A stretch of DNA of 21,426 nucleotides. Origin: Escherichia coli (GTDB lineage Bacteria; Pseudomonadota; Gammaproteobacteria; Enterobacterales; Enterobacteriaceae). The notes under the pieces were generated by a model. It worked only from the letters and a program-made list of their open reading frames with translations. It was not told the DNA's origin and did not search any database. The stretch lies in NCBI RefSeq assembly GCF_003334765.1, contig NZ_QOWT01000047.1, one strand, 5' to 3'. The translations under genes and the position numbers were made by a program. Positions 20,785 to 21,426 of this stretch are shown piece after piece; position 1 is the stretch's first letter; every line of letters begins with the position of its first letter.

Positions 20785-21349
20785 ATGTTACGAAAAAGCA
20801 AACTTACAGAGATATATAAAAGGTTTGGTTTTACTGAAGAAAATACAGGTAACGAAAGTATTGCTGTATATTCTATTAAAACAGGGCACTACCATAACGC
20901 GGACATACTTCCACTAAATAATGAGGTTAATGTAAATCAAACCTTTGAAGAATATAGGCAGTTAGGTTATGCATGTCAAATTAAAAAATATCAGTCTTAT
21001 GAAGAAGCACATAAGGAATTATTTAATGGCTTCTTTAGCGTCGATTCAACTAAAGAAAGGTTGATTAAAGATTATAATACTTTCACAGATTCAATTGTAA
21101 AAATTCACTCACCTACTGCAACTTATTCCTACATAAATTCAAAATATTACTTAAATGGTGTTATTGGCGAAGCTAATGTTGTTACGGAAATATTAGAGAG
21201 AATACAACATAGGCGTCCAATTCTGTTTTTGATTGAGGCTGCAGCCGGTTTTGGAAAGACTTGCACGGCGTATGAATTATTGAGGGAGATTATAGTTAAC
21301 AATATAGGGAAAATACCATTATTTTCAGAACTATCAAGGAATAGGCAAG
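20785..21349 (+). pseudogene. P-loop NTPase (STAND/NACHT-like Walker A) with a possible Mrr-like PD-(D/E)xK N-terminal domain, truncated by IS5 insertion
   Basis: ATG 20785 has AGGAGG (20771-20776) 8 nt upstream. The Walker A motif ..RPILFLIEAAAGFGKTCTAYEL.. lies about 160 aa into the protein. The N-terminal part has ..HNADILP..(25 aa)..GYACQIKKY, resembling the D...QxK signature of Mrr-type nucleases (weak). The reading frame runs straight into the IS5 IRL at 21350, so only about 188 native codons remain. Confidence 0.7.
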
Positions 21350-21426
21350 GGAAGGTGCGAACAAGTCCCTGATATGAGATCATGTTTGTCATCTGGAGCC
21401 ATGGAACAGGGTTCATCATGAGTCAT
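21350..21426 (+). mobile_element. IS5 left end (IRL plus transposase start codon region); the element extends rightwards out of the window
   Basis: GGAAGGTGCGAACAAGTCCCTGATATGAGATCATGTTTGTCATCTGGAGCCATGGAACAGGGTTCATCATGAGTCAT is the IS5 IRL, followed by ATG AGT CAT (MSH..), the transposase start. It is a perfect inverted copy of bases 1-77. Confidence 0.85.

Follow-up and report, generated by a model that had tools for sequence, protein, structure and literature searches.

The window, as the whole 21,426-nt stretch of Escherichia coli DNA analysed here is called, ends in a gene that encodes a P-loop and is then cut by an insertion sequence. Two questions follow from this arrangement: what the uninterrupted protein is, and by which component it would act. 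An initial annotation, made from the letters alone, proposed a nuclease fused to a STAND/NACHT-like NTPase, in the manner of antiphage proteins of the Avs/bNACHT type. It is practically certain that the window copy is the 5' stump of an NLR-like STAND NTPase gene, cut by IS5 after codon 188. The search for its effector leads to the gene that directly follows the intact alleles. The features of the window on which the analysis is based are the following.

20657-20719, strand not assigned: imperfect inverted repeat with 24-nt arms and a 15-nt spacer, upstream of the NACHT gene
20771-20779, plus strand: Shine-Dalgarno sequence AGGAGGTGA, AGGAGG(TGA), with AGGAGG 8 nt before the ATG at 20785
20785-21349, plus strand: 5' fragment of the gene of a 701-aa NA-iREase2-NACHT-pentapeptide STAND NTPase, codons 1-188 plus 1 nt
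20800-21153, plus strand: N-terminal NA-iREase2 domain, residues 6-123 (Pfam PF22723)
21238-21261, plus strand: Walker A motif (P-loop) AAAGFGKT, residues 152-159, conforming to GxxxxGK[ST]
21350-21426, plus strand: IS5 end, transposase-start side, beginning GGAAGGTGCGAACAAG..., with the ins5 ATG at 21418

The interrupted gene, its IS5 junction and its intact alleles

The Shine-Dalgarno sequence of the NACHT ORF is a perfect match and, together with the ATG, bears out the near-ideal translation start described in the initial annotation. Further upstream, the inverted repeat overlaps the sole plus-strand sigma-70-like match found before the gene (CTTACA-17-TATTAT, 20656-20684); judging from this position, it could be a promoter or an operator. 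The sequence of the truncated ORF runs MLRKSKLTEIYKRFGF...LFLIEAAAGFGKTCTAYELL; its Walker A lysine, K158, is located within the motif LFLIEAAAGFGKTCTAYEL. The native frame is preserved until base 21349, i.e. codon 188 plus one base, 30 codons past K158, which places the junction at 21349/21350. From 21350 onward, the 77 nt match annotated IS5 copies of 1,522 E. coli genomes at 100% identity. Translation into the element adds the tail GKVRTSP before a stop codon at 21370-21372, resulting in a 195-aa product composed of 188 native residues plus 7. Walker B and sensor 1 are missing from this product, as are the winged-helix region and the sensor domains. The sensor in this strain is dead, nonfunctional as encoded, in agreement with the earlier statement that IS5 lies about 30 codons after the P-loop and inactivates the protein.

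The IS5-broken allele circulates in a lineage, because the identical truncated product and the identical junction occur on three other, independent short draft contigs. Isolates with this allele are represented by, for example, GCA_965137835.1 and the reads ERR271232 and SRR10357268. The junction is absent from all 5,426 complete E. coli genomes searched. An exact-protein look-up with the truncated product returned contigs that are all short and likewise end in IS5, so that the far side of the element was not recovered; a look-up with a variant of the neighbouring RelA/SpoT-type protein (P0121) led exclusively to loci whose sensor gene is intact, again with no far side of IS5. Insertion of IS5 typically takes place at YTAR with a 4-bp duplication. 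The four nucleotides preceding the IS5 end at 21350 are CAAG, not YTAR, in the comparison of window positions 21346-21353 with positions 12746-12760 of locus L001. This flank may hint at a non-canonical IS5 insertion or at a secondary rearrangement. At the opposite extremity, positions 1-77 of the window repeat these 77 IS5 nucleotides in reverse complement and abut TTAA at 78-81, which fits YTAR. The resulting 21.3-kb segment is therefore bounded by inverted IS5 ends, with both transposase-start ends facing inward. Since exactly 77 nt of IS5 are present at each contig end, we infer that both ends result from the k-mer overlap of the assembler into a repeat; two real copies and an IS-mediated inversion are alike compatible with the sequence. 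The window stops 77 nt into IS5, and the DNA past the element lies outside it. There, a simple insertion would predict ...CTTATTCGCACCTTCC followed by CAAG and CAAAAATATTCAGG and then an intact gene of the RelA/SpoT-type partner, while a rearrangement would predict the 3' part of the gene beside the other IS5 copy, approximately 21 kb away, or its absence.

The intact form of the gene is readily available. Uninterrupted alleles in 48 complete E. coli genomes match the 750 nt before the junction at 100% identity, and in them the sequence runs through ...GGCAAG and, past the junction, into CAAAAATATTC. The strains free of the IS5 insertion that the initial annotation had called for are thus at hand, and the ancestral protein can be reconstructed, as it had anticipated, from public 701-aa alleles. 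In strain FORC_081 the intact ORF encodes 701 aa (WP_000944877.1, named "NACHT domain-containing protein" in RefSeq) and is directly followed on its 3' side by the gene of a 301-aa "RelA/SpoT domain-containing protein", identified below as a small alarmone synthetase (SAS), whose start overlaps the NACHT stop. In FORC_081 the operon and its native upstream region occupy positions 4579527-4582722 of NZ_CP029057.1. Intact alleles are also present in MRE162, NCTC9100 and other strains.

Among the 5,426 complete E. coli genomes, 66 carry the operon, in every case on the chromosome; by annotation both genes are intact in only about half of these carriers. The sensor gene is split by frameshifts or stop codons in at least 12 genomes and truncated at its 5' side in 12, and the operon is hit by IS2 in RM10410 and by IS3 in OY754443, strain H3. 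The SAS gene is split in five carriers, and a broken sensor gene may coexist with an intact SAS gene, for example in TUM3755. Within E. coli the NACHT-SAS operon has decayed repeatedly through independent events, for example at L085, 29708-32717, and this large number of independent inactivations suggests that the system is costly or dispensable in this species. In this respect the window copy is an ordinary pseudogene, killed by an IS, from a family that is already annotated; its value lies in being one of many independent inactivation events.

A separate observation concerns the hundreds of draft E. coli records of "partial" RelA/SpoT proteins (clusters P0123, P0133 and P0152). The P0123 and P0133 clusters were considered as IS insertions and rejected, given that the two contigs inspected (L086 and L087) break off within the SAS gene and show no IS sequence. 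These partial records are assembly breaks in AT-rich DNA, not insertions.

Domain architecture of the intact protein

The intact protein consists of four parts: the NA-iREase2 domain, the NACHT NTPase, a beta-helix of pentapeptide repeats and, at the C-terminus, a small domain. Among 67 homologues from many phyla, the Walker A residues G155, G157, K158 and T159 are invariant. The same holds for D226, D229 and E230 of the Walker B motif VILDGFDE and for T266 and R268 of the sensor 1 motif TTRR, both of which lie past IS5 and are consequently encoded by the intact allele only. The Pfam NACHT match (PF05729) of the protein is sub-threshold, with 17.5 bits vs a cut-off of 26.7; some homologues carry a precomputed PF05729 hit. 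The Pfam pentapeptide match is also weak and below its cut-off.

The structural analysis was performed on an AlphaFold2 model (pLDDT 84) of a Citrobacter orthologue (P0002) that is 89% identical to the E. coli protein. In this model the P-loop NBD includes helical and winged-helix parts and is followed by a beta-helix (approximately residues 530-600) and a small alpha/beta C-terminal domain. The best PDB matches obtained with Foldseek are NLRC4, NLRP2/3, NAIP5 and Avs4, with NOD2 also among the best, and the NBD-helical-winged-helix fold is closest to NLR NACHT modules. The 701-aa protein is a NACHT-type STAND NTPase, bacterial NLR-like; the P-loop, the NLR folds at the top of the structural matches and the invariant Walker A, Walker B and sensor residues uphold the STAND/NACHT-like ATPase first proposed for this gene. 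The C-terminal regions are the most variable, with a mean pairwise identity of 25% vs 49% for the NBD. In the model they comprise the beta-helix and the C-terminal domain, which would accordingly be described as fast-evolving and probably sensor-like.

The N-terminal domain was assigned to PF22723 over model positions 1-118 of 119, with a score of 116.2 bits vs a cut-off of 27 (E 1.4e-33). Its length is approximately 125 aa, and not about 150 aa as estimated at the outset. The family name, NA-iREase2, stands for "NACHT-associated inactive Restriction Endonuclease 2", i.e. the family is curated as inactive. The assignment of a restriction-endonuclease fold is based on this Pfam family and on the topology of the model, alpha-beta-beta-beta-alpha-beta. 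Of the long strands, the second (E36-43) carries D40 and the third (E63-66) carries Q65, with K67 just past the latter; from general knowledge of the fold, we take these positions to be those where the catalytic residues of a PD-(D/E)xK site are expected. The E. coli protein itself therefore displays D40...Q65-x-K67, and D...QxK is a variant seen in Mrr. Residue 40 is acidic in all 67 homologues (D in 25, E in 42), and N38 is present in 47 of them. The other two positions are distributed over several residue types, namely K28/T14/E10/Q5/S3/R3/H2 at position 65 and R35/K8/Q7/S6/T4 at position 67. The Mrr-like signature suggested in the initial annotation thus stands as regards the fold family and the placement of D40, Q65 and K67, but not as regards a retained active site, since the family is curated as inactive and QxK is not conserved.

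The residues that are best preserved in the N-terminal domain are of a different nature. L79, F80, F84, Y97 and Y114 are invariant in the 67 sequences, and G82 and F83 are nearly so; residues 79-84 belong to an LFxGFF helix. From the alignment, these hydrophobic and aromatic positions look like a packing or docking interface and not like an active site, and it is predicted that the family as a whole has not kept this domain as a nuclease. The loss of the nuclease residues may not be universal: a Bacteroidota subgroup (loci L060-L067, L076 and L077) shows HAAE...ATE(I/V)(K/R), an E...E-x-K/R pattern nearer to the canonical PD-(D/E)xK site than the rest of this "inactive" family, and some members may retain residual nuclease activity. 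Whole-chain fold searches, which did not reach this small domain, gave no match to it, and a profile search of PDB sequences with the domain retrieved no related solved structure and no solved nuclease. In a scan of 1.84 billion representative proteins the domain was found in 203 clusters only; among the best 150 of these, it lies at the N-terminus of proteins of approximately 700 aa, or of shorter fragment-like ones, in all but one. The domain is a dedicated module of the NA-iREase2-NACHT family, not a widespread nuclease.

The RelA/SpoT-type partner gene and its genomic surroundings

The homologues number more than 1,600. The conservation of the downstream gene was evaluated with a RelA/SpoT-like HMM on 80 related loci fetched from species-representative genomes. 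All of the loci with both a true family member and downstream room (77 of 77) carry a RelA/SpoT-like ORF immediately 3', in the same orientation; the three loci without a RelA/SpoT hit are marginal partial matches, and two further family loci have no downstream room. The 77 loci belong to Gamma-, Beta- and Epsilonproteobacteria, Bacteroidota, Firmicutes, Deinococcales, Fibrobacter and Myxococcales, i.e. to at least six phyla, and the NACHT and SAS proteins diverge in parallel.

The partner is a RelA/SpoT small alarmone synthetase, as indicated both by its fold and by its synthetase-domain motifs, of the types RxKxxxS, DxxGxR, ExQxRT and H..YK. In 37 sequences the motifs R33-x-K35-x3-S39, Q59-D60-x2-G63-x-R65, E133-x-Q135-x-R137-T138 and W144-H145-E146-x2-H149 are invariant, and the Pfam RelA_SpoT match reaches 55.4 bits vs a cut-off of 27. 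In the structural model (pLDDT 88), RelP and RelQ rank first by fold, with a target TM of 0.6-0.72, ahead of CapRel, whose match is much weaker; an extra helical C-terminal region spans residues 197-300. A profile search of PDB sequences similarly retrieved only RelQ/RelP-type (p)ppGpp synthetases, not CapRel, and with PADLOC v2 the partner gives a weak PDC-S33 hit only. Because of the strict 3' linkage and the invariant catalytic motifs, the constant catalytic component of the system would be the SAS pyrophosphokinase and not the N-terminal domain, and SAS, rather than a nuclease, is the likely effector. The fused nuclease-NTPase layout put forward initially consequently gives way to a two-gene arrangement, in which the likelier effector is encoded downstream, outside the window.

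The operon has a GC content of 30-35% and resides on a chromosomal island beside ileY/ypjA, together with a relaxase gene, two ParB-like genes, a serine recombinase gene and an integrase gene. The NACHT gene lies approximately 3.7 kb from the relaxase gene, and in intact islands the ParB, recombinase and integrase genes are found beyond the operon. The location in the putative leading region of a mobilisable element, remarked on in the initial annotation, is not supported, no oriT having been identified. In other taxa the flanks are heterogeneous and include, in a minority, type I R-M genes, integrases and an AbiEii-like ATPase, as well as housekeeping genes. By simple count, type I R-M genes make up approximately 3-4 of the 131 ORFs that neighbour 35 of the loci, which is a modest defence signal. 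Taken together, the low GC content, the mobile island, the sporadic presence, the frequent decay and the occasional type I R-M neighbours are hallmarks of conflict systems.

Two further observations concern this region. At 1569-1644 of the window ARAGORN calls a tRNA-Met with CAT anticodon, whereas for strain TUM3755 the gene is given as tRNA-Ile in RefSeq; this is presumably ileY, whose CAU anticodon would be read as Ile after lysidine modification. Upstream of the operon, on the opposite strand, remnants of a DUF4928 gene are present (approximately 19670-20130 in the window and 28596-29052 in locus L085). DUF4928 is annotated as truncated or partial in several genomes and represents another decayed gene of the same island.

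Possible function of the pair and related systems

From the identity of the gene and its truncation, the domain content, the conserved operon and the intact catalytic motifs, which are directly supported, a defence role, a direction of control and an effector chemistry can be proposed. It is modestly probable that the two genes form a phage-defence module composed of an NLR-like sensor and a pyrophosphokinase effector. The variable beta-helix and the C-terminal domain would sense a phage-derived or phage-perturbed factor, after which the NACHT module would oligomerise in an NTP-dependent manner. The clustered N-terminal domains would then recruit, release or de-repress the SAS partner, which would pyrophosphorylate a nucleotide or tRNA and thereby lead to growth arrest and abortive infection. 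Known toxSAS enzymes and CapRel halt growth via toxic pyrophosphorylation of nucleotides or tRNA (PMC7229694, PMC9712102). As an overall explanation, combining the identity and truncation of the gene with this mechanism, such a reading is the best available and is considered fairly probable.

The opposite direction of control would make the pair similar to a toxin-antitoxin system, in which a constitutively toxic toxSAS is neutralised by the NACHT protein and released upon infection or upon loss of the element (addiction). The overlapping bicistronic layout, which resembles that of toxSAS modules (PMC7229694), the intact SAS catalytic motifs and the location on a mobile island are all consistent with such a pair. 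A function of the sensor as an essential antitoxin is, however, less likely, because in E. coli genomes broken sensor genes stand next to an annotated SAS ORF: it is still annotated beside sensor genes that are frameshifted or stop-split (at least 12), 5'-truncated (12) or, in some cases, hit by IS2/IS3, and the IS5 allele of the window is itself present in several isolates. A possible loss of SAS expression through polarity weakens this argument. Furthermore, antitoxins are not typically large NTPases, so that a 701-aa NTPase with invariant Walker A, Walker B and sensor-1 residues would be atypical, and the order of a large gene followed by SAS is unlike that of most toxSAS pairs. On balance, a toxin-antitoxin pair appears unlikely.

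A fused effector-sensor of bNACHT25/Avs-like type, with a Mrr-like PD-(D/E)xK domain that cuts DNA upon NACHT oligomerisation and a downstream gene that is accessory, is unlikely as well. Such a protein would account for the restriction-endonuclease-fold family, for the model placement of D40, Q65 and K67, with an acidic residue always at position 40 and a D...QxK pattern known in Mrr, and for the E...E-x-K/R motif of the Bacteroidota subgroup; in addition, bNACHT25 is predicted by Kibby et al. to have a Mrr-like nuclease effector (doi 10.1101/2022.07.19.500537). It is difficult to reconcile with the name "inactive" given to the family by the Pfam curators, with an acidic residue at position 65 in only 10 of 67 sequences and K at position 67 in only 8, with the interface-like hydrophobic and aromatic character of L79, F80, G82, F83, F84, Y97 and Y114, and with the presence of SAS with full catalytic residues in 77 of 77 loci. 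Finally, the pair may have no role in immunity and consist of a regulatory NTPase and an alarmone synthetase that tune host physiology (stress, persistence) for the benefit of the mobile element. The resemblance of the partner to RelQ/RelP-type (p)ppGpp synthetases, much stronger by fold than that to CapRel, and the many housekeeping neighbours in other taxa agree with this possibility. It is nonetheless quite improbable in view of the sporadic cross-phylum distribution, the low GC content, the frequent decay and the fast-evolving, probably sensor-like C-terminal region, and considering that several NACHT proteins in Kibby et al. are antiphage by experiment, e.g. bNACHT01 of clade 14. Preference is therefore given to the phage-defence module with SAS as the effector.

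With regard to known systems, NA-iREase2+NACHT(+Pentapeptide) proteins from V. cholerae, Paenibacillus, Fibrobacter and others are listed as NACHT clade 15 in Table S1 of Kibby et al. (doi 10.1101/2022.07.19.500537), where no NA-iREase2 entry has a bNACHT test number. The same study mentions alarmone synthetases among NACHT-associated effector domains in its supplementary discussion and contains one eukaryotic Tox-RelA+NACHT fusion in its table. The family shares with bNACHT clade 15 a NACHT core with Walker A, Walker B and sensor 1, and a tripartite layout whose C-terminal sensor is of the repeat type. Other N-termini are found in bNACHT09, 34 and 69, the members of clade 15 that were tested, whereas the present family combines a predicted non-catalytic N-terminal domain with an obligatory separate SAS gene; bNACHT69, considered as a tested homologue, was discarded on account of its different N-terminus and its single-gene-sized insert (2,482 nt). 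In the literature searched, outside of which further papers are possible, no paper on a NACHT-SAS pair or operon was found, nor any experiment on the NA-iREase2-NACHT family, which appears in Table S1 of Kibby et al. only.

CapRel(SJ46) and the toxSAS enzymes FaRel, FaRel2 and PhRel have in common with the partner the RelA/SpoT synthetase fold, the intact motifs and the compact mobile operon, and CapRel demonstrates that a SAS can serve as an antiphage effector (PMC9712102; for toxSAS, PMC7229694). CapRel carries its sensor/antitoxin as a fused C-terminal domain, and toxSAS enzymes are paired with a small antitoxin, in contrast to the separate 701-aa NLR-like NTPase observed here; both by sequence and by fold, the present SAS is nearer to RelP/RelQ than to CapRel. 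Avs proteins with effectors in trans (Avs2-trypsin-MBL), as described in a preprint (bioRxiv 10.64898/2026.08.25.746987), offer a parallel in that a STAND sensor controls an enzyme beyond its own fused nuclease, and Avs4 is among the structural matches of the sensor. Unlike Avs, the present system has a NACHT-clade NTPase, a pentapeptide beta-helix in place of TPR as its sensor, and a pyrophosphokinase as the putative effector. Membership in Avs, as suggested in the initial annotation, is not borne out by PADLOC v2.0.0, which gave no hit for the 701-aa protein at E <= 1, Avs models included. Mrr-like PD-(D/E)xK effector domains such as that of bNACHT25 share the N-terminal position before NACHT, the alpha-beta-beta-beta-alpha-beta topology and, for the E. 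coli protein, D...QxK on adjacent strands; they differ in that the triplet is not conserved in the NA-iREase2 family, that Pfam names it "inactive" and that no sequence match to a solved nuclease is found.

A broader generalisation is more tentative. The family may represent a widespread NLR-like immune class in which the oligomerised NLR switches on a pyrophosphokinase in trans, with the degenerate nuclease domain acting as a docking adaptor. If this is true, the output would be a burst of alarmone or (pp)pApp, or the pyrophosphorylation of tRNA 3' ends, and such a passage from an NLR to nucleotide signalling would be an output not yet described for STAND proteins. Bacterial NLR-like proteins have been studied mainly as single polypeptides with fused effectors, whereas here a separate enzyme of the alarmone-synthetase type accompanies the sensor in at least six phyla. 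The intact E. coli operon provides a directly clonable example. The family would represent a variant of bacterial NLR-like immunity whose RelA/SpoT-type effector is encoded in trans, and the NACHT-SAS pair would link STAND/NLR sensing with toxic RelA/SpoT enzymes, two fields so far studied separately.
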